From sequence record OZ418233.1: a stretch of DNA of 40,362 bases. One strand, 5' to 3'. The notes under the pieces were generated by a model. It made no database searches. It was not told where the DNA came from and saw only the letters and a list, made by a program, of their open reading frames with translations. This document shows positions 2,813 through 35,052 of this stretch, in pieces. The stretch's first letter is position 1. Each line of letters begins with the position of its first letter. Source of the DNA: a phage. The position numbers and the translations under genes are program-made.

Positions 2813-2889
2813 TGGCGTGGCATGCAGGATTCGAACCTGCGACCAACCGCTTAGAAGGCGGTTGCTCTGTCCGACTGAGCTAATGCCAC
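2813..2889 (-). tRNA. tRNA-Arg (anticodon TCT)
   Basis: Reverse complement reads GTGGCAT-TA-GCTC-AGTCGGACA-GAGC-A-ACCGC-CTTCTAA-GCGGT-TGGTC-GCAGG-TTCGAAT-CCTGC-ATGCCAC-G-CCA: 7-bp acceptor stem, D, anticodon and T arms all pair, anticodon loop CT-TCT-AA, encoded CCA. Confidence 0.85.
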
Positions 2890-14937: not shown

Positions 14938-15264
14938 ATGACTAAAAATACTCGTTTTTCCCCCGAAGTCCGTCAACGGGCAGTCCGTATGGTTCTGGAA
15001 AGTCAGAGCGAATATGACTCACAATGGGCGACAATTTGTTCCATTGCTCCAAAGATTGGCTGTACGCCGGAGACTCTGCGTGTCTGGGTTCGCCAGCATG
15101 AGCGGGATACCGGGGGCGGTGATGGAGGGCTCACCACCGCTGAACGTCAGCGTCTGAAAGAGCTGGAACGTGAAAATCGTGAACTGCGCCGCAGTAACGA
15201 TATCCTTCGCCAGGCTTCCGCTTATTTTGCGAAGGCGGAGTTCGACCGCCTCTGGAAAAAATGA
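14938..15264 (+). CDS. IS3-family transposase OrfA (HTH)
   Basis: 108 aa ending in a leucine-zipper-like segment ([25 protein letters not shown]); overlaps orfB in the -1 frame as in IS3 elements. Confidence 0.85.
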
Positions 15265-16151
15265 TGCCACTGCTGGATAAGCTGCGTGAGCAGTACGGGG
15301 TCGGACCGCTATGCAGCGAACTGCATATTGCCCCGTCAACGTATTACCACTGTCAGCAACAGCGACATCATCCGGATAAACGCAGTGCCCGTGCGCAGCG
15401 CGATGACTGGCTGAAGAAAGAGATACAGCGCGTATACGATGAAAATCACAAGGTATACGGTGTGCGTAAAGTCTGGCGTCAGTTGTTACGGGAAGGTATC
15501 AGAGTGGCCAGATGCACTGTGGCACGTCTCATGGCGGTTATGGGACTTGCCGGTGTTCTCCGGGGTAAAAAGGTCCGTACGACCATCAGCCGGAAAGCCG
15601 TTGCCGCAGGCGACCGCGTAAACCGTCAGTTCGTGGCAGAACGACCTGACCAGCTGTGGGTGGCTGATTTTACTTACGTCAGCACATGGCGGGGCTTCGT
15701 CTATGTGGCGTTCATCATTGATGTGTTTGCCGGATACATCGTGGGGTGGCGGGTCTCATCGTCCATGGAAACGACATTCGTGCTGGATGCACTGGAGCAG
15801 GCGTTATGGGCCCGTCGACCGTCCGGCACGGTCCATCACAGTGATAAAGGTTCTCAGTATGTATCGCTGGCCTACACACAGCGGCTTAAGGAAGCCGGAT
15901 TACTGGCATCAACAGGAAGTACAGGCGACTCGTATGACAACGCGATGGCGGAGAGCATCAATGGTCTTTACAAAGCGGAGGTAATACACCGTAAGAGCTG
16001 GAAAAACCGTGCAGAAGTGGAACTGGCCACACTCACGTGGGTGGACTGGTATAACAATCGACGATTGCTGGAAAGGCTGGGCCATACTCCTCCGGCAGAA
16101 GCAGAAAAAGCTTATTATGCTTCCATCGGAAACGATGATCTGGCAGCCTGA
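15261..16151 (+). CDS. IS3-family transposase OrfB (DDE integrase-like catalytic domain)
   Basis: 296 aa with rve-type features (WVADFTYV..., HSDKGSQY..., [15 protein letters not shown]); overlaps orfA, consistent with programmed frameshift expression. Confidence 0.85.
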
Positions 16152-18133: not shown

Positions 18134-20608
18134 ATGAGACAGGAATGTATACAAGCGGTCCAGCAGGCGGCGCAGCGCACGTTAACGGCGCGAGAAATAC
18201 AGAACATTGAAGACCGCATTTATCGCAATATGCGCTCCATTGCTCGTGATGACCCTATGTCGTGGCGACAACTTTCCGAGTCAGAGCGGCTGTATCGTGC
18301 AGCACAATTGGCATCTGAAGAATTACAGCGAGAAGCGGCATTAAAGAAACGTCGTGTGGCTCTTACTATAGCCGCACGTCAGAGATTGGATAAATTTATC
18401 AATAGCTATCAAGGGGCTGATGGGAAACTTGGCGCTCTTAACCGTACTATTGCTTTTAATGCAGACGGTAAATCGAATTTCCTCTCTGTTGAGTCCAGAA
18501 CAAAAGCCACTCGTGATTATGCATTGAGTCAATTGCAGGAGGCATTTGAAGCAGTTGATCCTCGCTTTTTTGGCCTGTTTGAAGATGAAGCTGGCGTGCG
18601 TGACCTGGTATATGAAATGCGAGGGCAAAATACTGGCAATGCTAAAGCAAGAAAAGGTGCTAAGGCGTGGAGAGAAGTGACAGATCTACTGCGCCGCCGG
18701 TTTAATGATGCTGGTGGGGACATTGGCTATCTCGAAAACTGGGGGATCCCTCAACATCATTCTATGGAAAAGGTTGGGACGGTATCAAAAGATAAATGGG
18801 TTAGCGATGTTATAGGTAAGCTGGATCGCAAATATTATACCCGAGCCGATGGACAACTGATGAACGATGCCGAGTTGTCTGCATTTCTTGGAGAGGCTTA
18901 TAACACGATCGCTACTGGTGGGCTGAATAAGCTTACTGATACCGGAATGCGAATTTCCGGCGCACGTGCTAACCGTGGTAATGCATCACGACAGATACAT
19001 TTCAAAGATGCAGATTCCTATCTGCAATATCAGCAACTTTATGGCGATCGCTCTCTATGGGAAATCATGGTCGGTCACCTTGAAGGTATCAGTAAAGATA
19101 TTGCACTGGTGGAAACATATGGCCCAAACCCCGATCATGTTTTCCGCTCTCTTCTTGATCAGGTGAAGGCAGAAACGGCAACAGCTAACCCGAGTAAAAC
19201 CGGTAAAGTCGAGCGGCTGGCGAACAACACAGAGAATCTGTACAACTTTATTTCCGGAAAGACACAGCCTGTAGCGAATCCGCACATCGCGCGATGGTCT
19301 GACAATATCCGCAACTGGCTGGTTGCCAGCAGACTCGGATCCGCGTTGCTGTCATCGTTCTCTGATCTTGGAACCATGTATCTGTCTGCGAAGGTTACCA
19401 ACCTTCCAATGAACCAGTTATTCCGCAACCAGCTTGAAGCTATGGACCCAACGAACCGTACAGAACTTGCGCGGGCGCGCCGCGCTGGTCTGGCGATGGA
19501 ATCTCTACTTGGCAGCGTTAACCGCTGGGCGATGGATAATATGGGGCCGTCTGTGTCTCGTTGGGCTGCAACGGCGGTGATGCGTGCCAGTGGGCTTACA
19601 GCATGGTCAGATGCGCACAAGCGCGCCTATGGCGTAACCATGATGGGAAGCCTGGGAGAAGTAGTGTCACGGACACCAGACCTTCGTAGCCTCGATGATT
19701 CTGATTTTCGTATCCTGAAAAGCAAAGGGATTACTGACACAGACTGGAGCGTATGGAAGCTGGCGCAACAGGAGGACTGGGGGAACGGCAATAATACGAT
19801 GCTGACACCGGAAAGCATTATGCGTATCCCTGATTCAGCAGTTAAACATCTTGGTGAGCCTGAACGCGTGAAATTTGAGGCAATGCGTAAACTGCTCGGT
19901 GCCGTAACTGAAGAAGTTGATATGGCTGTTATTACACCGGGAGCACGTGAGCAACTGATAACCGGTTCTGGTATTCAGCGTGGAACATGGAAAGGTGAAT
20001 TAACGAGAAGTGTTTTCCTGTTTAAATCGTTCCCTATCTCGGTGGTTATGCGTCACTGGTCACGCGCTATGGGTATGCCGTCTGCTGGTGGGCGTGCGGC
20101 ATATATTGCGACGTTTATTGCCAGTACGACCATTCTTGGCGCTTTGTCGCAGCAACTTAACGACCTTGCGTCTGGTCGTAATCCTCGCGAGATGACAGGA
20201 GAAGATGCTGCTAAATTTTGGCTTGGTGCTCTACTGAAAGGTGGTGGTCTTGGCCTTTACGGTGACTTTTTATTGTCAGATCACACTAGGTACGGAAGCG
20301 GCGCGCTGGCGTCGATGCTTGGCCCGGTAGCTGGTCTGGTTGATGACGTAGTGAAGATTGCTCAGGGCATACCGTTAAATGCTGTGGAAGGGAAGAATGA
20401 GCAGACTGGTGGTGATCTGGTTAAGCTGGGGAAAGGTCTGATGCCAGGTGCGAATCTCTGGTACTTAAAGGCGGCTCTCGATCACATGATCTTTAACCAG
20501 ATGCAGGAGTATTTTTCACCAGGTTATTTGCGTAAAATGGAGCAACGTTCGAAGAAAGAGTTTAACCAGACATACTGGTGGCGACCACAGGATGTCACTC
20601 CGCAATAA
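18134..20608 (+). CDS. large internal virion/ejection protein (824 aa)
   Basis: Last and largest gene of the virion core block; hydrophobic C-terminal segments; RBS GAGAGG upstream. Confidence 0.45.
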   Translation: MRQECIQAVQQAAQRTLTAREIQNIEDRIYRNMRSIARDDPMSWRQLSESERLYRAAQLASEELQREAALKKRRVALTIAARQRLDKFINSYQGADGKLGALNRTIAFNADGKSNFLSVESRTKATRDYALSQLQEAFEAVDPRFFGLFEDEAGVRDLVYEMRGQNTGNAKARKGAKAWREVTDLLRRRFNDAGGDIGYLENWGIPQHHSMEKVGTVSKDKWVSDVIGKLDRKYYTRADGQLMNDAELSAFLGEAYNTIATGGLNKLTDTGMRISGARANRGNASRQIHFKDADSYLQYQQLYGDRSLWEIMVGHLEGISKDIALVETYGPNPDHVFRSLLDQVKAETATANPSKTGKVERLANNTENLYNFISGKTQPVANPHIARWSDNIRNWLVASRLGSALLSSFSDLGTMYLSAKVTNLPMNQLFRNQLEAMDPTNRTELARARRAGLAMESLLGSVNRWAMDNMGPSVSRWAATAVMRASGLTAWSDAHKRAYGVTMMGSLGEVVSRTPDLRSLDDSDFRILKSKGITDTDWSVWKLAQQEDWGNGNNTMLTPESIMRIPDSAVKHLGEPERVKFEAMRKLLGAVTEEVDMAVITPGAREQLITGSGIQRGTWKGELTRSVFLFKSFPISVVMRHWSRAMGMPSAGGRAAYIATFIASTTILGALSQQLNDLASGRNPREMTGEDAAKFWLGALLKGGGLGLYGDFLLSDHTRYGSGALASMLGPVAGLVDDVVKIAQGIPLNAVEGKNEQTGGDLVKLGKGLMPGANLWYLKAALDHMIFNQMQEYFSPGYLRKMEQRSKKEFNQTYWWRPQDVTPQ

Positions 20609-21110: not shown

Positions 21111-21134
21111 GGCCGCTTTCGCGGCCTTGTTTTT
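21111..21134 (+). terminator. intrinsic terminator
   Basis: GGCCGC-TTTC-GCGGCC hairpin followed by TTGTTTTT. Confidence 0.65.
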
Positions 21135-21294
21135 AACGAATGCCACCGCCTCCCGGGCGGGAATCCGCAGAACGCCCACCGCAGCGGGAGCCGTCAGCGG
21201 CAGTATCGCTGTCGTGCTGACAACGACCGGCAAAGGCCTGAGTTGAAGCTACCAGAGACAACAAAACGAACAGTGCAGCAAATGCTTTTTTCAT
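21133..21294 (-). CDS. small secreted/lipoprotein-like peptide (53 aa)
   Basis: Internal Met of the 77-aa ORF gives MKKAFAALFVLLSLVASTQAFAG..., a signal-peptide-like N-terminus; weak RBS; uncertain gene. Confidence 0.3.
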   Translation of the reverse strand: MKKAFAALFVLLSLVASTQAFAGRCQHDSDTAADGSRCGGRSADSRPGGGGIR

Positions 21295-21387
21295 TGTGAA
21301 ATTTCCATCTATAAGCCACCTCAATGTGGCGTCAATGAGTGTAGCACTGACTTTTGTTTCGTCCACAAAAAATCCCGCAGCGCGGGC

Positions 21388-21831
21388 TTATTCTTCTTCT
21401 TCATCATTAAAAAGCGGATTGTTGTTTCCATCTGATGAAAGGAAAGGTATGTGTTCTCTTGAAAATCCAACAATGACAATTTCATTATCATTTTTTGCAT
21501 AATGAATGCATTCATTAGAATGCATTCCGCCAGGGTTGAAATTTAAGTTAATGGTATAATTCTTAAATGTGTTTGGATACCATGTTGGCCCACAATGATA
21601 ATGCCAATAATTCTCTTGCTCATAATTGTCTGAGCCGGGAATTTTATCATGGTTATCATCAACCCACGAGGGCTTGTTTTTTCCAACAAGCGCCCTTCCA
21701 TTGGCAACATCCTCTAAAAACCTTTGTATGATTTTTATTTCATCATCAGTAAGGAAAGGTCCGTCTACAGCGAAAGGGGTGTTGCTTTCCCCATGTAGAA
21801 AACTATTAGATATTCTAATGTTAAACTTCAA
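21388..21831 (-). CDS. hypothetical acidic protein (147 aa), AT-rich
   Basis: TTG start with RBS CAGGAG 7 nt upstream; visibly low GC versus flanks; strongly acidic (poly-E C-terminus); clustered His/Cys (HYHCGP, NECIHY); no family recognised. Confidence 0.5.
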   Translation of the reverse strand: MKFNIRISNSFLHGESNTPFAVDGPFLTDDEIKIIQRFLEDVANGRALVGKNKPSWVDDNHDKIPGSDNYEQENYWHYHCGPTWYPNTFKNYTINLNFNPGGMHSNECIHYAKNDNEIVIVGFSREHIPFLSSDGNNNPLFNDEEEE

Positions 21832-21851
21832 GGAAAACTCCTGATGTGCTT

Positions 21852-22019
21852 CTATTTGGAGCGAAATGCCGCCTTGAAGTCGCTAAAAGATGTTCCTGTC
21901 TGGTAAACCATATCCTTGTCGCGCTCTTTGCTTGCGCGACCAAGCATAACTTTTCCAATGACATCCCAGCATTGCTTGGCTTGTTCATTGTGCTGAGTAC
22001 GATTTTTCAACGCTGTCAT
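21852..22019 (-). CDS. hypothetical small protein (55 aa)
   Basis: Not in the supplied ORF track (below 60 aa); found by reading the minus strand: ATG with strong RBS AAGGAGG, translation MTALKNRTQHNEQAKQCWDVIGKVMLGRASKERDKDMVYQTGTSFSDFKAAFRSK, stop 21 bp upstream of the 147-aa gene. Confidence 0.35.
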   Translation of the reverse strand: MTALKNRTQHNEQAKQCWDVIGKVMLGRASKERDKDMVYQTGTSFSDFKAAFRSK

Positions 22020-22031
22020 ATCGCGCCTCCT

Positions 22032-22046
22032 TTACCTTTAAGGTAA
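22032..22046. promoter_or_regulatory. operator-like motif TTACC-TTTAA-GGTAA
   Basis: Perfect copy of the shared palindrome, 13 bp upstream of the 55-aa gene start, directly after a -10-like TAATAT on the minus strand. Confidence 0.55.
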
Positions 22047-22112: not shown

Positions 22113-22799
22113 TCAGAAGAACCCTGCTTTGTCGTTGATGTACTCCGCGTGGGTCTGGATATCACGCAGGCATTTGCTCACACCAACGATGTAGCAGAAC
22201 ATGGTGGTCAGCTCCGCCGCCGCTCCCGATACGTCGTGCCCGTCGTCCTGTAACTGGTTCAGCAGATTCATCAGCAGTGAGTTCTCCGTCAGGCCGAGAA
22301 CACCAGACGGCGAATGAATCAGGCTACGGTAGCCGGGCTTCAGTGGGGCGCTGTAGGTTTTGTTCTCTATCTTCATTGCCTGCATCACTGCTGACGCCGT
22401 GGCGTTGGCTACCTGGTCGGCAACCATCTTTATGCGTTCTTCTTGCGGGAGCGAGTTTTTAATGTAACTTCCGGTGCGGCGGATCTGAGGAAGAACCTCA
22501 CCTGTAACCCATTTACGAAAGCGGTATGGGATAGTGCCTGGTGTCACCGCATCGCGGCAGCGGAGGATCAGTGTGTAGAGGCCTGACTCGTTGATAATAT
22601 TGGTTTCGCCTTGACGGCCTAAGTTAAATTTAGCCCTTTCATCATCATCAAGAGATTTTATTGACATAGTGGGGTTTGTCAGTTGAAGAGCTTTAATAAC
22701 GTCTTTGGCAACAAACCAAGGATTTCCATCAATAACAATGGCTCGAATGGTTGCTTCTGATTCAAAATGAAAAACAGATGGGGTTACGTTAGCAGTCAT
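22113..22799 (-). CDS. Bro-N domain protein (antirepressor-like), 228 aa
   Basis: From internal ATG with RBS AGGTGA: MTANVTPSVFHFESEATIRAIVIDGNPWFVAKDVIKALQL... is a Bro-N-type N-terminal domain; C-terminal about 65 aa is paralogous to the small protein at 23945-24217. Confidence 0.7.
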   Translation of the reverse strand: MTANVTPSVFHFESEATIRAIVIDGNPWFVAKDVIKALQLTNPTMSIKSLDDDERAKFNLGRQGETNIINESGLYTLILRCRDAVTPGTIPYRFRKWVTGEVLPQIRRTGSYIKNSLPQEERIKMVADQVANATASAVMQAMKIENKTYSAPLKPGYRSLIHSPSGVLGLTENSLLMNLLNQLQDDGHDVSGAAAELTTMFCYIVGVSKCLRDIQTHAEYINDKAGFF

Positions 22800-22952
22800 A
22801 GTGATCACCTTTGTAGTTAGGTTAATCACCACTACCGACGCCAATCGGTTGGTGGTGAACTGTGCAGGGTTGGCGTAACCGGCTACAAAGGACCCGGCGC
22901 ACCTTTCGGTGCCCCCACACAGCCCACCATAGAATAGGTGCGCTTTACACAT

Positions 22953-22971
22953 AAAAAAACCGCTTATGCGG
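22953..22971 (-). terminator. candidate terminator/attenuator in the leader upstream of the Bro-N gene
   Basis: On the minus strand: GCCGCATAAGCGG hairpin followed by TTTTTTTA; lies between the operator/promoter region (about 23060-23080) and the Bro-N start. Confidence 0.3.
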
Positions 22972-23065
22972 CATATGTGCCTCTGTAGTAATCCGGGACG
23001 CCAATCCCGGCACTGGATTTTGCCAGTGCCCGATTACTATGGCACAAGAGGAGTGCGATGTAAAT

Positions 23066-23080
23066 TTACCGTAAAGGTAA
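23066..23080. promoter_or_regulatory. operator-like motif TTACC-GTAAA-GGTAA
   Basis: Perfect palindrome; on the minus strand it follows a -35/-10-like pair (TTGATT, 18 bp, TATCAT). Confidence 0.55.
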
Positions 23081-23158
23081 TGATAAGCGCGAAGAAACAT
23101 TAAAATCAACCGTATTTGGTTGATTGCGTTTAACGCTTGATCACCTGAAAGCAAGATA

Positions 23159-23173
23159 TTACCTTTAAGGTAA
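23159..23173. promoter_or_regulatory. operator-like motif TTACC-TTTAA-GGTAA
   Basis: Perfect palindrome 20 bp upstream of the ATG of the 242-aa gene. Confidence 0.55.
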
Positions 23174-23193
23174 TGTTATTGTGAGGAAAAGCA

Positions 23194-23922
23194 ATGGAAG
23201 TTTTCTGGATAGTTGTTGGTGTGGTTGCGGTGATTATTTACGTTATCAACCAGAACAAGACTAAGATCTCTGATCGTACGGTCGTTAATCATAACAAAAC
23301 GATAAAGACCGAAGATGGGGAGATAACGATTAATCGTACACAGGTGATAGAACACACCTCTACTCAGTTTCAAAAAACTGGAGGTAATGCGCCTAATATT
23401 TCCGCACCTCCTGCTTATGATAGTGCGGTAATCCAGACATATTATAAACAGCAGGAGTTAGCAAAAGAGAGGCAACTGATTCAGCCAAAGCCGTTTACAG
23501 CTGAGATTCCACCTGGAGTGTCAACGCGTCCGGCATATCATGGAAGATTCCCTGGTGATGACATATCGTCTCAGTCATCTAAAAAAGCACCTCAGGCAAT
23601 ATCAGAGCCAGCAAGAATACCTTCTGTATCGCCGCCAAAAGAAGAATCAGCTAACAGAGTTTCAAGTGGTAGCAAGCAGTGCTTGCGATGCAGAATAAAC
23701 CTTCCATATGAAAAATTCAGGAAATCGTCAAAAAATCCAGATGGATTGACTAAATGGTGTGCAAGGTGTCTCGATGGCCCAAAGAATACACGCCATATGA
23801 AGTGGTGCCCAATTTGTAATGTCCGCAGAAAACGAACCAGCTTTTACCCTAATAATCAAAATGCGGACGGCTTAATGGCATGGTGCAAAACGTGCTGGGA
23901 TGAGCACAAAGCGAAACGATAG
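23194..23922 (+). CDS. membrane-anchored protein with two CxxC zinc-ribbon-like pairs (242 aa)
   Basis: RBS GAGGAAAA; N-terminal hydrophobic helix followed by basic residues; Pro/Ser-rich linker; C-terminal C-x2-C repeats (CLRC, CARC, CPIC, CKTC). Confidence 0.55.
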   Translation: MEVFWIVVGVVAVIIYVINQNKTKISDRTVVNHNKTIKTEDGEITINRTQVIEHTSTQFQKTGGNAPNISAPPAYDSAVIQTYYKQQELAKERQLIQPKPFTAEIPPGVSTRPAYHGRFPGDDISSQSSKKAPQAISEPARIPSVSPPKEESANRVSSGSKQCLRCRINLPYEKFRKSSKNPDGLTKWCARCLDGPKNTRHMKWCPICNVRRKRTSFYPNNQNADGLMAWCKTCWDEHKAKR

Positions 23923-23944
23923 GCCGCTCTTGCGGCCTTTAAAT

Positions 23945-24217
23945 TTACCGGGTTTGTTTTCGTAATTGTTCGGCACAATAGTCGAGATGTGTTTGCAGAT
24001 CCCGCATAGACATCTGTGAGCTGGTGACGTAGTTAATCAGTGCAGTCAGTTCGGCAAGTGGGCCATCGACATTAAATCCATCCTTATCGAGATCCCGGAG
24101 TAATTTCATCAAGTGCGATCCCTCCACCAGTGACTTGACGCCTCCCGGCGTGTGAATCCTTTCGGTAAATCCGTCTTCCAGTGGATAGTGATACTGCTGC
24201 ATCTTAATCTTCTCCAT
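23945..24217 (-). CDS. small antirepressor-like protein (Bro C-terminal-domain paralog), 85-90 aa
   Basis: About 45% identical by eye over 60 aa to the C-terminus of the Bro-N protein (…LAELT…RD[IL]QTH…); second ATG at 24202 has RBS GGAGAAG; LexA-box-like palindrome immediately upstream. Confidence 0.55.
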   Translation of the reverse strand: MEKIKMQQYHYPLEDGFTERIHTPGGVKSLVEGSHLMKLLRDLDKDGFNVDGPLAELTALINYVTSSQMSMRDLQTHLDYCAEQLRKQTR

Positions 24218-24221
24218 GCAA

Positions 24222-24243
24222 TAACTGTATATTTATACAGTAT
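24222..24243. promoter_or_regulatory. LexA (SOS) box candidate
   Basis: TAACTGTATATTTATACAGTAT contains CTGT-N8-ACAG with AT-rich spacer, one mismatch from the E. coli consensus TACTGTATATATATACAGTA as I recall it; located just upstream of the small antirepressor-like gene. Confidence 0.65.
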
Positions 24244-24279
24244 CAAATAATTTGTTTGCTATCCAGCACGTTTTGCAAA

Positions 24280-24294
24280 TTACCTAAAAGGTAA
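24280..24294. promoter_or_regulatory. operator-like motif TTACC-TAAAA-GGTAA
   Basis: Perfect palindrome in the divergent intergenic region between the small antirepressor-like gene and the tailspike gene. Confidence 0.55.
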
Positions 24295-24398: not shown

Positions 24399-26588
24399 AT
24401 GACGGTCTCAACCGAAGTTGACCACAACGAATACACCGGTAACGGCGTTACGACATCATTTCCGTATACCTTCCGTATTTTCAAAAAAACCGACCTGGTT
24501 GTTCAGGTGTCTGACCTGAACGGGAACGTAACAGAATTGGTTCTGGATACCGGTTATAAGGTAACTGGAGCGGGCACTTATAGTGGCGGTGAAGTGGTTC
24601 TCCCGTCGCCGCTTGCTGCTGGCTGGCGAATTACGATAGAGCGTGTGCTTGATGTGGTGCAGGAGACTGATCTTCGCAATCAGGGAAAATTTTTCCCCGA
24701 AGTTCATGAAGATGCATTTGACTACCTGACGATGCTGATCCAGCGATGTTTTGGGTGGTTCAGACGTGCATTGATGAAACCATCTTTGCTTGCAAAATAT
24801 TACGATGCAAAGCAAAACAAAATTTCTAACCTTGCAGATCCATCATTTGAGCAGGACGCTGTAAATAATCGCTCAATGCGTAATTATGTCGATGCTGCAA
24901 TCGCCGGGGTTGTTGGTGGTTTTGGTTGGTTTATACCGTCAGGAAGCGGGGCAAGACAACGAACATTTCAAAGCAAAATGAGGGATATAATTTCTCCTTG
25001 TGATTACGAAGATAATATTTTTATGATTAAGGAGTTGATATCCAAAGGCAAAAATGCCGCTGTTTTTAACTCATATTATACTTTTGTTATTACTGTTGGC
25101 GAATGGGGTGATTACCCTACACTCAAAGATGCAATCATTGCAGCCCAGTCAATGAGACCTATGTGGGATGGTGGTAATGCTTTCTGCGAAATAAGAATTA
25201 AGACCGGGCATATTATCAACTATCAAATTGAATTCAGTTCAGGTGTTGATTTGTCTTGGATTAAAATAACATCAGAAGACTCAGTGGTTTTCTCTGATAC
25301 TCGTTTGTTTACTAAAATCGTTAGAACGTATTACGAATACAAGTATTTATTTTACATTTGCGATGCAGCAAAAAGTCCTGTATTTGCTATTCAGATCGAA
25401 GAAAATAGAGATGATAGCGATGTTTGTGCATTTATTGTAACTCAAAAAGCTGAACTTAATTTCTATCCGTATTCAGGTGCTCGAAAGTTCTACGTTGGAA
25501 TTCATGGTAGTTTTGGTGCAAAAATTAGTGCATATCATACCGGATGTGCTCCTGATGAGGAAAGTGTTGCTGCATATATGCCAGAAGGGTATTACGTATG
25601 TGATTTTTCTTATAGCAGATACTCTTCCCTGCAACTGGTAAATAATGTCAAGGCATCAATGCCTGTAAGCAAGTTTGAACGGTGCACAGAGAGTACGGTT
25701 GCGTCAGTTAATTGTATTTATAATGTTAAAGCAGATTTTCAGGGGTCAAGTGCAAGCTATTGTTATATAGGATGGAATGTAAGAGATGGTTCAAATGTTA
25801 ATATACGCGACCATAAAACTATACATTGCTCATATCGTGGATTAACCTGCATTCATACAGCATATGTTGATGCAAGACGACATGACGTTGAAGAAAGTGA
25901 TGCAGAAACAAGTGGTAAAGTCCTTGAACCAAATATTGAAAAAGGTTTTTATGGATGTGCACTTGGTGTGCGTATTGATGGTGCGGGTTGCGTTGATGTT
26001 GCTGGTAATGATATGCGCAATTGTGGAACAGCCGTTAATGCAGACACTGGTGCTGTTATTTCAGGAAAGGCTGTAGATATCTCAGGGGCTGAGCTGGGAT
26101 TTGATTGCCATGCAGGAGCATCTGTTAATTTTCCAAGGCTATGGGGTACAGATATAAAAAAATTAATGCACCTCCAAGATGGTGTAAGGTTTAACTCTAA
26201 TATTTGTCATGTATTTGGTGCAAATCCCACAAAAGATATTAGATGGATTGATGTAGAGAGATCTGAAGCTTCTTTTATGAATGCAACGCTGGATGCAGAT
26301 TCAGGATTTATTGCCGACTGTGGTAGTAGGATAACCATTGAAGGAAGTAAAGTTAAAAACCAAACAATAAGAAGTTTTTTTGGATCATATGTGGCTATAA
26401 ATAATACTGTTGCTGACAGAACTTATTCAGATATAGCCGATGTTCCGCAGTTGACTATTAGTGGAGGATCTTTTATTTCTGCTACAGGATATTCTAATTC
26501 TGACTCCAGCCCTCTGAGGTTGAGCACAACACGAAATACACTTGGCGTTGGAGGAGCCATATTTTCAACCAATGGGGAAGTTTCATGA
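24399..26588 (+). CDS. tailspike / receptor-binding depolymerase (729 aa)
   Basis: N-terminal about 130 aa resembles the conserved particle-binding module of podovirus tailspikes (from memory); the remaining body is visibly AT-rich; RBS GGAG. Confidence 0.75.
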   Translation: MTVSTEVDHNEYTGNGVTTSFPYTFRIFKKTDLVVQVSDLNGNVTELVLDTGYKVTGAGTYSGGEVVLPSPLAAGWRITIERVLDVVQETDLRNQGKFFPEVHEDAFDYLTMLIQRCFGWFRRALMKPSLLAKYYDAKQNKISNLADPSFEQDAVNNRSMRNYVDAAIAGVVGGFGWFIPSGSGARQRTFQSKMRDIISPCDYEDNIFMIKELISKGKNAAVFNSYYTFVITVGEWGDYPTLKDAIIAAQSMRPMWDGGNAFCEIRIKTGHIINYQIEFSSGVDLSWIKITSEDSVVFSDTRLFTKIVRTYYEYKYLFYICDAAKSPVFAIQIEENRDDSDVCAFIVTQKAELNFYPYSGARKFYVGIHGSFGAKISAYHTGCAPDEESVAAYMPEGYYVCDFSYSRYSSLQLVNNVKASMPVSKFERCTESTVASVNCIYNVKADFQGSSASYCYIGWNVRDGSNVNIRDHKTIHCSYRGLTCIHTAYVDARRHDVEESDAETSGKVLEPNIEKGFYGCALGVRIDGAGCVDVAGNDMRNCGTAVNADTGAVISGKAVDISGAELGFDCHAGASVNFPRLWGTDIKKLMHLQDGVRFNSNICHVFGANPTKDIRWIDVERSEASFMNATLDADSGFIADCGSRITIEGSKVKNQTIRSFFGSYVAINNTVADRTYSDIADVPQLTISGGSFISATGYSNSDSSPLRLSTTRNTLGVGGAIFSTNGEVS

Positions 26589-34349: not shown

Positions 34350-34934
34350 TTATTGTTTGTTTTTTTCGTTCTGGTTGATGACAAATTCAATGTAACTTTC
34401 GATCTTTGCCTTCTCTGTTTCAGGTAGCAATGCGTAGCGCGAGCGGTCATAGTTGATAGTCGCGGGGTCGTGCGGGTGAATCAGTAATTCATATCCGTGA
34501 CGCCCAAATGCGGATGCAACATTCTCCAGGGTGGAAATGGAAACGCTGACCTCATTGTTTAACAGGCGGCTGATTGTTACCTGGGCGACGCCGGATGCGC
34601 GGTGAAGTTTTCCCTGCGTTGAAAGGTCGCGGCTTTCGCTCATCCAGCGTTCCAGGTTGTGAGCCGCCAGTTGACCAATGTCGCTTGGTCCGACAGGCTG
34701 AAAACCTTCCTGAGAAAGCGAGCGATCGATATCAAGCCAGTTACGGGGTTTATTGGCGGCAGCTTCAATTTTTCGCGCAACCTGGTCGCCGATAACCTTC
34801 TTGCCAAGAGCCCAGCGGTTTACCAGATTTGCCTGAGTTCCAAGTTTTTCAGCCATCCGCGTCTGAACACCATTGAATTCACGGTCGATCAAGTCGTTGA
34901 GATTTTGCCTGCGGACGTCCTGGATACTTTTCAT
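34350..34934 (-). CDS. prophage repressor candidate with two HTH (XRE-like) domains, no peptidase domain
   Basis: 194 aa; two HTH-like segments (…TRMAEKLGTQANLVNRWALGK… and …SGVAQVTISRLLNNEVSVSISTLENVASAFG…); divergent from a Cro-like gene with two palindromic operators between them; no Ala-Gly/Ser...Lys S24-type self-cleavage module seen. Confidence 0.55.
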   Translation of the reverse strand: MKSIQDVRRQNLNDLIDREFNGVQTRMAEKLGTQANLVNRWALGKKVIGDQVARKIEAAANKPRNWLDIDRSLSQEGFQPVGPSDIGQLAAHNLERWMSESRDLSTQGKLHRASGVAQVTISRLLNNEVSVSISTLENVASAFGRHGYELLIHPHDPATINYDRSRYALLPETEKAKIESYIEFVINQNEKNKQ

Positions 34935-34989: not shown

Positions 34990-35004
34990 TTACCCAACAG
35001 GTAA
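34990..35004. promoter_or_regulatory. operator-like motif TTACC-CAACA-GGTAA (immunity region)
   Basis: Perfect palindrome in the repressor/Cro-like divergent intergenic region. Confidence 0.6.
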
Positions 35005-35037: not shown

Positions 35038-35052
35038 TTACCTTATAGGTGA
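35038..35052. promoter_or_regulatory. operator-like motif TTACC-TTATA-GGTGA (one mismatch) overlapping a rightward promoter
   Basis: Sits between a -35-like TTGTTA (35035-35040) and a -10-like TATTAT (35058-35063, 17-bp spacing) upstream of the Cro-like gene. Confidence 0.55.

Follow-up and report, generated by a model that had tools for sequence, protein, structure and literature searches.

The 40,362-nt stretch of phage DNA analyzed here (sequence record OZ418233.1, hereafter the window) encodes two proteins that share a module of about 80 amino acids, one of them a small SPC32H-type antirepressor (Ant) and the other a fusion of the module to a Bro-N domain (Bro-N::Ant). It is probable that these two modules inactivate one non-cleavable immunity repressor (Rep) under different triggers, SOS/LexA for the small Ant and an isrK/C4 RNA cassette for the fusion. 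The region would be the anti-immunity (immI-like) corner of a temperate E. coli phage of the phiV10/epsilon15 type (Uetakevirus). The original prediction had described three genes here, for a Bro-N protein, a small protein and a 242-aa protein on the opposite strand between them, and all three are present at the coordinates it gave.

The module shared by the small Ant and the Bro-N fusion

The resemblance between the C-terminal part of the Bro-N protein and the small protein had been noticed by eye and put at about 65 aa. Pairwise alignment with BLASTP, which had been proposed as a check, returned significant similarity: residues 143–224 of the Bro-N protein align without gaps to residues 3–84 of the small protein with 34 of 82 identities (41%, E=3e-21), a value that rules out chance resemblance of the two modules. 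The paralogy therefore stands, but the length does not; because the ungapped alignment runs over 82 aa, the module comprises about 82 residues rather than about 65.

The small protein (ant, 23945..24202, reverse strand, 85 aa) was matched by phmmer to the PDB chain 5d50_E, annotated as "Anti-repressor protein" (residues 7–89 against 3–85, E=4.6e-46), and to phrog_450 (E=6.5e-48). It is 85.9% identical to SPC32H Ant, of which it is, judging from these matches, the ortholog. Descriptions of SPC32H Ant present it as a tetramer (PMC9638917) and as a LexA-controlled antirepressor that was crystallized in complex with the repressor (PDB 5D50), binds the C-terminal domain of Rep and dissociates the Rep tetramer (PMC9638917, PMC9986798). 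The Bro-N protein (22113..22799, reverse strand, 228 aa) matched phrog_130 and phrog_1760 ("anti-repressor"). Its predicted Bro-N domain (aa 18–104, nt 22748–22488) is borne out by Pfam PF02498 at 72.3 bits against a gathering score of 25.6, and a helical linker separates it from the SPC32H-Ant-type module (aa 143–228, nt 22373–22116), in which aa 147–223 gave a PDB profile match to residues 3–79 of 5d50_E (E=1.9e-13). In an AF2 model of the fusion the Bro-N domain is confident (pLDDT 82–92) and the C-terminal module is helical with pLDDT 50–82; a Foldseek search of the PDB with this model gave no match at E<=0.001 (best 0.047), and 5d50_H was returned with a probability of 0.99 but a weak E-value of 0.12. 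A 279-aa extended version of the Bro-N ORF was discarded, its extension being unconserved.

The 194-aa repressor (rep, 34350..34934, reverse strand) matched PDB 5d50_A, "Repressor", over its full length (E=4e-42). It is 100% identical to the repressors of phiV10 and ZX5 and 43% identical to SPC32H Rep; its Pfam matches are HTH domains only, with no S24 peptidase domain. Because Rep cannot cleave itself, it must be inactivated by protein binding, and we infer that it is the common target of both antirepressors. The matches of the small Ant, the fusion and Rep to chains of one crystallized complex agree with the original proposal of two antirepressors that share a target-binding module, perhaps for the repressor. 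As in SPC32H, Ant would bind the C-terminal tetramerization domain of Rep and split the DNA-binding tetramer into inactive dimers, and the module of the fusion is likewise predicted to bind Rep directly.

The function of the fusion can be approached through ORF4 of phage ZX5, to which the Bro-N protein is 82% identical; from residue 68 onward, D185E is the only difference. The evidence for ZX5 ORF4 as an anti-repressor comes from overexpression, which lowered lysogens from 1e9 to 1e6 (about 1000-fold) and rep transcription by 75% (PMC9782041). By way of this ortholog the Bro-N protein is presumably an antirepressor as well, and a fusion that ends in the SPC32H Ant domain would explain the promotion of lysis by ORF4. 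The gene is dispensable, since its ortholog in the type phage phiV10 is frameshifted within the module.

Among 30 sequences, 15 positions are invariant and common to both module subfamilies. The subfamilies are old paralogs: small Ant and Bro-N C-module are about 39–40% identical inside the E. coli phage and inside a Klebsiella phage. Given that Ant itself forms tetramers, the residue conservation could stem from oligomerization rather than from contact with Rep. The module would then be mainly a tetramerization domain, and the fusion, not aimed at the resident Rep, would use Bro-N to act on DNA or on targets in the host, or would co-assemble with the small Ant and modulate it. The age of the paralogy and the tetramer described for SPC32H Ant fit such a reading, as does the similarity of the Bro-N domain to winged-helix DNA-binding folds (SKI/Dachshund, Foldseek probability 0.97). 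We nevertheless consider it rather unlikely, as overexpression of ZX5 ORF4 acted toward lysis and lowered rep transcription (PMC9782041), and as the module is found on five N-terminal scaffolds, always alongside an SPC32H-type Rep. At a module search threshold of E<=1e-3, all 32 module-bearing phage records co-carry a full-length Rep of this type, which occurs in only 36 of 50,697 records. An exhaustive profile search, on which the domain architectures are based, identified AntA, pRha and ORF6N as further scaffolds; word-indexed searches with isolated modules gave mostly close, short relatives. In phage TL-2011b the scaffold is P22_AR_N. The number of scaffolds and the constant co-occurrence with Rep are better accommodated by a target-binding cassette than by a generic oligomerization tag.

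A target-binding fusion could also be directed at the repressors of heteroimmune relatives, as a trans-acting weapon of anti-immunity or cross-induction, with only the small Ant serving the phage's own induction. Non-cognate antirepressor action is documented for Gifsy and Fels prophages, the C4-controlled Ant of P1 is classically an anti-immunity function, and a patch of the module reads DGHDVSGAAAEL in the Bro-N protein versus DGFNVDGPLAEL in the small Ant. This alternative is improbable in our estimation: ZX5 ORF4 acted on ZX5 itself (PMC9782041), and in a comparison of three lineages only, the identities of the Bro-N C-module and Rep move roughly in step (79%/78% and 52%/47%), whereas those of the small Ant and Rep do not (86%/43%). 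These few lineages suggest that the fused module, rather than the small Ant, is matched to the resident Rep. Phages with Reps only 43% identical still have small Ants that are 86% conserved, so the matching of Ant to Rep would be loose or its recognition broad.

The relation between module and scaffold is illustrated by TL-2011b, whose C-module is 83% identical over 101 aa, the last approximately 80 aa being identical bar one substitution, and is carried by a P22_AR_N scaffold downstream of a sar RNA. Scaffold and control differ there, and the C-module is therefore the retained part. More tentatively, and with some doubt on our part, the approximately 80-aa SPC32H-Ant fold might be regarded as a portable, Rep-family-specific "warhead" that is mounted on at least five unrelated scaffolds, each with its own control device, such that one non-cleavable repressor is wired to two or three signals; free and fused copies could co-assemble, because Ant is a tetramer. 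If this were true, the control devices (LexA box, isrK/C4 and sar) would arrive with the scaffolds, the repressor would answer two induction or anti-immunity signals in the window and three in TL-2011b, and co-assembly would combine the SOS input with the RNA-gated one at the level of the proteins.

LexA, antisense RNA and operator-like sites

The start codon of ant is most likely the ATG at 24202, and the originally assumed start at 24217 is probably five codons too far upstream. The downstream start is used by PGAP (E. coli 118UI CDS) and by nearly all database clusters, and the corresponding Met is the first residue of crystallized SPC32H Ant (86 aa). With ant starting at this codon, GGAGAA (24210–24215) would be the ribosome-binding site. 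Approximately 10 nt upstream of it lies CTGTATATTTATACAG (24225..24240), an exact match to the CTGT-N8-ACAG pattern of a LexA (SOS) box. The pattern has three matches in the window, with 0.59 expected, and the spacer is AT-rich only in this one. The box is kept in five of the six relatives' loci scanned, at an identical position in phiV10, TL-2011b, SPC32H and Tyrion. The LexA box anticipated for the small gene is thus a near-consensus match that is conserved in relatives, and the window scan located no CTGT-N8-ACAG near the Bro-N fusion. The predicted consequence is that host LexA represses ant and that Ant is produced once DNA damage removes LexA. A hairpin terminator (23921..23938) separates ant from the convergent 242-aa gene.

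For the Bro-N gene, the main control indicated by the sequence is an isrK/C4 antisense cassette of the P1 immI type, not operators alone. A candidate sigma-70 promoter on the reverse strand (TTTACA, 17 nt with TG, CATAGT; 23036..23064), assigned like the other promoters by its match to the consensus, would initiate transcription at the 5' end of an isrK model (23029). The isrK-like leader RNA (22953..23029, reverse strand) matched Rfam RF01394 at 76.8 bits (gathering score 50), and an overlapping match to RF03163 (c4-a1b1) reached 45.1 bits, just under its gathering score of 46.7. Within the leader are the upstream C4 targets a1 (TTGGCGT, within 23005–22999) and b1 (CTACAGAGG, 22988–22980), both complementary to segments of C4, and a Rho-independent terminator (22972–22953) ends it. 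C4 itself (22848..22934, reverse strand; RF01695, 79.5 bits, gathering score 45) covers model positions 1–87, which is the full length, and has a minimum free energy fold of -45.2 kcal/mol with CCUUUGUAG as the hairpin-2 loop and ACGCCAA as a single-stranded 3' segment. The downstream targets (22808..22845, reverse strand) show exact complementarity to two C4 segments and consist of a2 (ATTGGCG, 22845–22839) and b2 (CTACAAAGG, 22816–22808), the latter covering the Shine-Dalgarno sequence of the Bro-N gene (AAGGTG).

The pairing of C4 with its targets was assigned by explicit matching of loops to targets and by co-variation, RNAduplex on the whole RNAs having given uninterpretable long duplexes. 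Across six phages, C4 and both target sets display compensatory co-variation: the loop pairing is CCUUUGUAG:CUACAAAGG in the window, Tyrion and the Klebsiella phage and CCUUUUAG:CUAAAAGG in phiV10, TL-2011b and ZX5, and the pairing of the 3' segment is ACGCCAA:UUGGCGU in the E. coli phages and AGACCAA:UUGGUCU in Tyrion and the Klebsiella phage. C4 was found in all relatives that have the Bro-N gene and is missing from SPC32H. A coupled leader ORF of the icd or orf45 kind was not encountered; the sole in-frame upstream ORF starts at ATG 22952 and stops 4–9 codons before the start codon in phiV10, TL-2011b and Tyrion. Rfam gave no sar match in the window and Pfam no P22_AR_N or P22_AR_C domain; among the relatives, both sar and the P22_AR domains are present only in TL-2011b.

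Transcription of the fusion gene, starting at the candidate promoter and its neighboring Rep-operator-like site, would produce the isrK-like leader with its terminator and then C4, which is presumably processed from the same transcript as in P1. C4 would pair with the two short targets that directly precede the Bro-N gene, one of them the Shine-Dalgarno sequence, and block translation in the lysogen, and the short isrK RNA, with the identical upstream target pair, could titrate C4. Under the control of this promoter and isrK/C4, Bro-N::Ant would inactivate Rep independently of SOS, either at infection or superinfection, while C4 has yet to accumulate, or upon a shift in the isrK:C4 ratio, as in P1 immI and Gifsy-1 isrK-anrP.

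The palindrome TTACC-N5-GGTAA occurs 14 times in the window, with 0.69 expected, and at all promoters of the region. From its position and conservation it is the probable Rep operator; the positional argument rests on two sites in the rep/cro-like divergent region (34990–35004 and 35038–35052). Sites at syntenic positions also occur in SPC32H, whose rep-cro intergenic region contains three, with another three just downstream of rep. One copy, TTACCGTAAAGGTAA (23066..23080), is 1 nt upstream of the -35 element of the isrK/C4/Bro-N-ant promoter, and a site 281–287 nt upstream of the Bro-N start is found in all six phages compared. At a distance of 93 bp from the next site, TTACCTTTAAGGTAA (23159..23173) lies 21 nt upstream of the start codon of the 242-aa gene; the same sequence recurs before the downstream cargo genes (22032..22046), overlapping a promoter-like TTGGCG-18-TAATAT. 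In the divergent region between ant and the tailspike gene, TTACCTAAAAGGTAA (24280..24294), with a syntenic SPC32H copy at 20013, abuts a palindromic TTGCAA (24273–24278) that could be the -35 element of the ant promoter. Because an operator-like site thus also adjoins the small ant promoter, operators fail to distinguish ant from the Bro-N gene. The original prediction had assigned operators to one gene and a LexA box to the other; differing input control, the LexA box and the operator-like palindromes all hold, but operators as the distinguishing control of the Bro-N gene do not, and the isrK/C4 cassette had been overlooked.

The zinc-ribbon gene and downstream cargo

The intervening gene (23194..23922, forward strand) encodes, as had been read from the sequence, a 242-aa protein with an N-terminal membrane anchor and four C-x2-C pairs. 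A hydrophobic N-terminus (MEVFWIVVGVVAVIIYVI) is followed by K22/K24, a low-complexity linker and two C-terminal CxxC...CxxC zinc ribbons (CLRC, CARC, CPIC and CKTC). The protein matched phrog_6762, of unknown function (E=5.7e-150). The ribbons resemble the N-termini of phage endonuclease-VII/HNH-type families (E of about 1e-9 to 1e-11), in PHROG matches that span only the approximately 45-aa zinc-ribbon segments. A nuclease catalytic domain was not detected, with no Pfam nuclease domain and no NCBIfam or PADLOC match, and Pfam Stc1 stayed under the cut-off. NCBIfam and PADLOC matched none of the genes of the region, and nothing in these searches points to a known defense system in the 242-aa protein or in the downstream cargo (ORFs of 55 aa at 21852–22019, 147 aa at 21388–21831 and 53 aa at 21133–21294). 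The cargo genes differ in TL-2011b, ZX5 and the Klebsiella phage.

The adjacency of the three genes and the operator-like site directly upstream of the 242-aa gene might indicate a single functional unit, in which the membrane protein serves the two antirepressors as sensor or anchor. We find this scarcely credible and reject such a triad on distribution. The 242-aa gene is absent from SPC32H, phiV10, ZX5, Tyrion and the Klebsiella phage, the last four of which have both ant genes, and is truncated in TL-2011b; the remaining homologs among phages come from Yersinia and Aeromonas phages that are unrelated. It is present in 129 of 5426 E. coli genomes, compared to 529 for ant and a range of 469–529 for the ant genes. 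The gene further differs from its neighbors in GC content (0.43 versus approximately 0.50), lies on the opposite strand with its own terminator, and yielded no convincing sigma-70 promoter in the promoter scan. It is a horizontally acquired accessory passenger outside the antirepressor system.

Significance and comparison with known systems

Among complete E. coli genomes, ant and the fused module each occur in about 9%, which makes this a common prophage switch. Such prophages would have an SOS-independent, antisense-RNA-gated route of induction or anti-immunity beside the SOS route, and this second route bears on spontaneous induction and on cross-talk among co-resident prophages. For a large and vaguely annotated family, the Bro-type "anti-repressor" of phiV10-like phages, the solved SPC32H Ant domain at the C-terminal end also offers a concrete, testable mechanism and target.

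The closest parallel is the Rep-Ant switch of SPC32H, reportedly described by Kim and Ryu in 2013 and by Kim et al. in 2016 with structures 5D50 and 5D4Z in the PDB. SPC32H belongs to the same phage type at genus level and shares the gene order of the window (injection-protein gene, ant, divergent tailspike gene), with a small Ant 86% identical to that of the window, the LexA box and adjacent TTACC-N5-GGTAA at equal positions, and a Rep homolog of the same two-domain layout without an autocleavage domain. It differs in having neither the Bro-N gene nor the isrK/C4 RNAs and in a Rep that is only 43% identical; in the window, ant has next to it an inserted second copy of the Ant module, one that is fused and under RNA-based control of its own. 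The immI operon of P1/P7 is said to comprise the c4 antisense RNA, icd and ant (Citron and Schuster in 1990). Shared with it are a C4-family RNA inside the antirepressor leader, a/b target pairs duplicated up- and downstream of c4, a downstream pair that occludes the ribosome-binding site, a promoter adjoining an immunity-repressor operator, and lineage-specific C4/target specificities. Unlike P1, the window has no icd-like leader ORF, and its C4 is aimed at the antirepressor's own Shine-Dalgarno sequence; the effector module has no relation to that of P1 Ant, and the repressor belongs to another family.

The Gifsy-1 prophage combines a LexA-controlled GfoA with isrK-orf45-anrP (PMC3121763, PMC4825925), that is, a small LexA-controlled antirepressor with a second one behind isrK and a processed C4-like RNA (STnc1160), and its isrK route is likewise one of SOS-independent induction. 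No Gifsy record was among the module-search matches (E<=1e-3), in a collection that may not include Gifsy-1; in the window, by contrast, both antirepressors have a common effector module and the orf45 coupling ORF is absent. The immI region of P22 (mnt, arc, sar, ant) also places an antirepressor region between injection-protein genes and the tailspike gene, and the P22_AR_N-type antirepressor with sar RNA in TL-2011b bears the C-module of the window, which itself has no sar match, no Arc or Mnt and no P22_AR domains. ZX5 shares ORF4 (82% identical), an identical Rep and the upstream isrK and C4 RNAs, and differs in lacking the 242-aa gene; its description assigns ORF4 to the Bro family, with a mechanism that is unclear, and mentions neither a small LexA-controlled Ant, nor SPC32H, nor a C4/isrK leader (PMC9782041). 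The system of the window is an assembly of known kinds, namely SPC32H Rep-Ant, P1 immI and Gifsy-1 isrK-anrP, and because all of its components are of known kinds, the gain lies in linking them, not in discovering something new.

A module shared by two antirepressors

The two antirepressor genes had been proposed to be paralogous through a C-terminal module, and alignment of their products bore this out: residues 143–224 of the Bro-N protein (22113–22799, minus strand, 228 aa) matched residues 3–84 of the free-standing small protein at 41% identity without gaps (BLASTP, E = 3e-21). The expected Bro-N domain (PF02498) spanned residues 18–104 of the former. The small protein matched chain E of PDB 5D50 ("Anti-repressor protein"; E = 4.6e-46) and shares 85.9% identity with SPC32H Ant. 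Secondary descriptions present SPC32H Ant as a LexA-controlled tetramer that binds Rep, the repressor, at its C-terminal tetramerisation domain and thereby separates the DNA-binding Rep tetramer into a pair of dimers (PMC9638917, PMC9986798, PMC7380047). The 194-aa Rep of the window (34350–34934, minus strand) gave a full-length match to 5D50 chain A (E = 4e-42); HTH domains were present, and no S24 autocleavage domain was found. The start originally assigned to the small gene probably needs correction. The most likely start is 24202 (23945–24202, minus strand, 85 aa), which is used by PGAP and almost all database clusters and is equivalent to the start of the crystallised SPC32H Ant; GGAGAA (24210–24215) then becomes a proper ribosome-binding site. 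A near-consensus LexA box, CTGTATATTTATACAG (24225–24240), lies approximately 10 nt upstream of that site, and its position is the same in phiV10, TL-2011b, SPC32H, and Tyrion. Together with the Ant and Rep matches to 5D50, this box identifies the small-Ant half of the finding, at the sequence level, as the known SPC32H switch.

The C-terminal 77 residues of the Bro-N protein also matched 5D50 chain E (E = 1.9e-13), and PHROGs link both antirepressors (phrog_450 and phrog_15539, unknown function; phrog_1760 and phrog_130, anti-repressor). In an AF2 model of the fusion, the Bro-N domain was predicted confidently, with a long helix after it and then a helical C-terminal module whose confidence was only moderate, plausibly because the module is oligomeric; Foldseek returned 5D50_H for this model at probability 0.99 with a weak E-value. 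The full-length architecture forms a large conserved family in Escherichia, Salmonella, Enterobacter, Klebsiella, Citrobacter, and Raoultella, and the best 120 of 7057 matches to the Bro-N protein were all at least 68% identical and 212–286 aa long, with "anti-repressor" and "BRO-like" as common names. Among the relatives is ZX5 ORF4, which is 82% identical overall and differs from residue 68 to the C-terminus by the single substitution D185E; its overexpression reduced lysogens from 1e9 to 1e6 and repressor transcription by 75% (PMC9782041), and the Reps of ZX5 and the window are identical. The ZX5 paper makes no mention of the small Ant, SPC32H, LexA, or leader RNAs. With the match to 5D50 Ant and the ZX5 ORF4 result, the original guess of a shared target-binding module was essentially right. 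In the type phage phiV10 (L002 3063–3742), a frameshift within the Ant module has left the Bro-N antirepressor annotated as a pair of CDSs, p23 and p22, so a viable temperate phage can do without the fused antirepressor.

When 1.84 billion cluster representatives were searched exhaustively with a profile, only 66 carried the module at E ≤ 1e-3, either free-standing (~85–95 aa) or at the C-terminus of longer proteins. The N-terminal partners are Bro-N, AntA, Phage_pRha, and ORF6N; in TL-2011b the partner is P22_AR_N. The TL-2011b protein, of 314 aa (L003 1451–2464) and with that phage's third copy of the ~80-aa module, is preceded by a sar antisense RNA match (44.8 bits) and matched the Bro-N C-module at 83% over 101 aa, its last ~80 aa being the Bro-N version except for one substitution. 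The module is thus kept while scaffold and control device change, one of several lines pointing to a repressor-binding cassette. A full-length SPC32H-type Rep was present in 32 of 32 phage records with the module and in only 36 of 50,697 phage records overall, although this co-occurrence is not independent evidence because all of these phages are relatives. The small Ant and the fused module share 39–40% identity within the E. coli phage, and likewise within the Klebsiella phage, and have 15 invariant positions in common; the two subfamilies are old paralogs. The small Ant is 86% identical between the E. coli phage and SPC32H even though their Reps are 43% identical, whereas the identities of fused module and Rep to those of the window fall roughly in step (79% and 78% in Tyrion, 52% and 47% in the Klebsiella phage). 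With three lineages compared, this pattern at most hints at a small Ant that is broad-spectrum, like the Gifsy antirepressors, and at a fused module that is allele-matched.

Control by RNA and by putative Rep operators

The original prediction assigned the two genes different inputs, operator sites for the fusion and a LexA box for the small gene. The LexA box was found, but an RNA control of the fusion had been missed. Upstream of the Bro-N gene, on the minus strand, are an isrK-like RNA (23029–22953, 76.8 bits, overlapping the c4-a1b1 model and with a terminator at its end) and a C4 antisense RNA (22934–22848, 79.5 bits), both well over the Rfam gathering score. The C4 hairpin-2 loop, CCUUUGUAG, is the exact complement of CUACAAAGG (22816–22808), which includes the Bro-N Shine-Dalgarno sequence, and the single-stranded C4 segment ACGCCAA is complementary to UUGGCGU (22844–22838); the isrK RNA carries a second copy of both targets. 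In the six phages compared, the C4 segments and both sets of targets co-vary. At the b site, CCUUUGUAG pairs with CUACA(A/G)AGG in the window, Tyrion, and the Klebsiella phage, and CCUUUUAG pairs with CUAAAAGG in phiV10, TL-2011b, and ZX5; at the a site, ACGCCAA pairs with UUGGCGU in the E. coli phages and AGACCAA with UUGGUCU in Tyrion and the Klebsiella phage. Such compensatory changes are direct comparative evidence for functional pairing. In all relatives examined, the Bro-N gene comes with both RNAs, and both are absent from SPC32H, which lacks that gene. Many automatic calls give a 279-aa protein by a 51-codon in-frame extension from ATG 22952 (22800–22952) that reads through the C4 RNA and joins the Bro-N ORF. 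This ATG has no ribosome-binding site and stop codons close the extension in relatives, so it is probably an annotation artefact. The ZX5 annotation places an 'ash family protein' across the equivalent C4 RNA.

Comparison of the window's C4 RNA (22848–22934) with the loci of phiV10 (L002), TL-2011b (L003), and further relatives (L005, L006, and L008) revealed a mosaic: the window's b-type loop (CCUUUGUAG) is that of Tyrion and the Klebsiella phage, whereas its a-type segment (ACGCCAA) is that of the phiV10 group. Such mosaicism implies several mutually heteroimmune immI specificities in this phage group, comparable to those of P1 and P7. The leader segment 22826–23024 is ~78% identical to >100 records of Stx1/Stx2-converting phages, suggesting that lambdoid Stx phages use this RNA cassette at their antirepressor loci as well.

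The palindrome TTACC-N5-GGTAA, allowing at most one mismatch, occurs at 14 sites in the window against 0.69 expected. Two are in the divergent region between rep and the cro-like gene and two just past the rep 3' end, and SPC32H has syntenic sites (three rep-cro, three downstream of rep, and one ant-tailspike); on these grounds we infer that it is the Rep operator. Four sites fall in the region of interest: at 23066–23080, 1 nt upstream of the -35 element in a promoter-like TTTACA-17-CATAGT with a predicted start at the isrK 5' end; at 23159–23173, in front of the 242-aa gene; at 22032–22046, overlapping a promoter-like element ahead of the downstream cargo genes; and at 24280–24294, abutting a TTGCAA by the ant/LexA region. 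An operator-like site at the isrK promoter is kept in 6/6 phages. Contrary to the prediction, such sites do not set the two genes apart; with one at each, both antirepressor promoters appear to be under Rep, besides their other controls, and for the fusion this would reproduce the Op51 logic of P1. [quoted passage not shown] These sites beyond the immunity region, which mirror those of SPC32H, suggest an unusually wide Rep regulon.

Genomic setting and the 242-aa zinc-ribbon protein

The window represents the genome of a temperate E. coli podophage of the phiV10/epsilon15 type (genus Uetakevirus). Its 3.5-kb region 21000–24500 matches a prophage in E. coli 118UI and in five further complete genomes at 100% identity and is partly in common with TL-2011b, HEMP4, phiv142-3, ZX5, and phiV10 at 93–96% identity. 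The antirepressor region is flanked by the last injection-protein gene (18134–20608) and the tailspike gene (24399–26588), the slot occupied by ant in SPC32H and, in its equivalent, by immI in P22. An IS3-family element (14938–16151; orfA HTH_Tnp_1, orfB rve), with an ALIL -1 frameshift pseudoknot at the orfA/orfB overlap (15219–15335, 120 bits), lies within the structural/injection block, and the ORF ahead of it encodes 834 aa where its counterpart, SPC32H_016, has 937 aa. The phage is thus probably defective. A tRNA gene (2816–2889, minus strand, 73 bits) matches the tRNA-Arg of SPC32H in position. Downstream of the Bro-N gene is a three-gene cargo operon (21133–22019) with its own promoter-like site, overlapped by the operator-like palindrome, encoding proteins of 55 aa, 147 aa (phrog_5954), and 53 aa, the last resembling one with a signal peptide; none matched Pfam, NCBIfam, or PADLOC. 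The contents of this slot differ in TL-2011b, ZX5, and the Klebsiella phage, and one TL-2011b product is a YafO-family toxin according to RefSeq.

As originally described, the opposite-strand ORF between the antirepressor genes (23194–23922) encodes a 242-aa protein with a hydrophobic N-terminal anchor and four CxxC pairs, its zinc ribbons being predicted as cytoplasmic by the positive-inside rule. It belongs to phrog_6762, to which no function is assigned. Its two ribbons resemble the N-terminal ones of phage endonuclease VII/HNH/Lar-like families, but no catalytic domain of these families was found, nor any Pfam match over the cut-off or any match in NCBIfam or PADLOC. The gene was not found in SPC32H, phiV10, ZX5, or Tyrion and is truncated in TL-2011b; other homologs are in Yersinia and Aeromonas phages. 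Of 5426 E. coli genomes, 129 had the gene, compared with 529 that had ant and 469 that had the fused module; its GC content is 0.43 versus ~0.50 nearby. This accessory gene, inserted into a variable slot, does not belong to the switch.

Relation to known systems

The known parts are the SPC32H Rep-Ant switch, the Bro-type antirepressor tested in ZX5, and the P1/Gifsy-type isrK/C4 cassette. A statement linking the phiV10-like Bro-type antirepressor to the SPC32H Ant domain was not found in the accessible literature. Judged by its homology, this antirepressor ends in that domain, such that one non-cleavable Rep would be addressed by two differently triggered antirepressors and, in TL-2011b, by three under different controls. 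The connection is useful for annotation and testable, and is unlikely to surprise a specialist. The locus differs from P1/P7 immI and Gifsy-1, which have a leader ORF, in lacking a conserved one, but its architecture is otherwise that of P1/P7 immI, where Ant is controlled by C1, C4 RNA, and Icd, and of Gifsy-1 isrK-orf45-anrP, where short IsrK acts in trans to turn on antirepressor translation, leading to SOS-independent induction (PMC3121763, PMC4825925).
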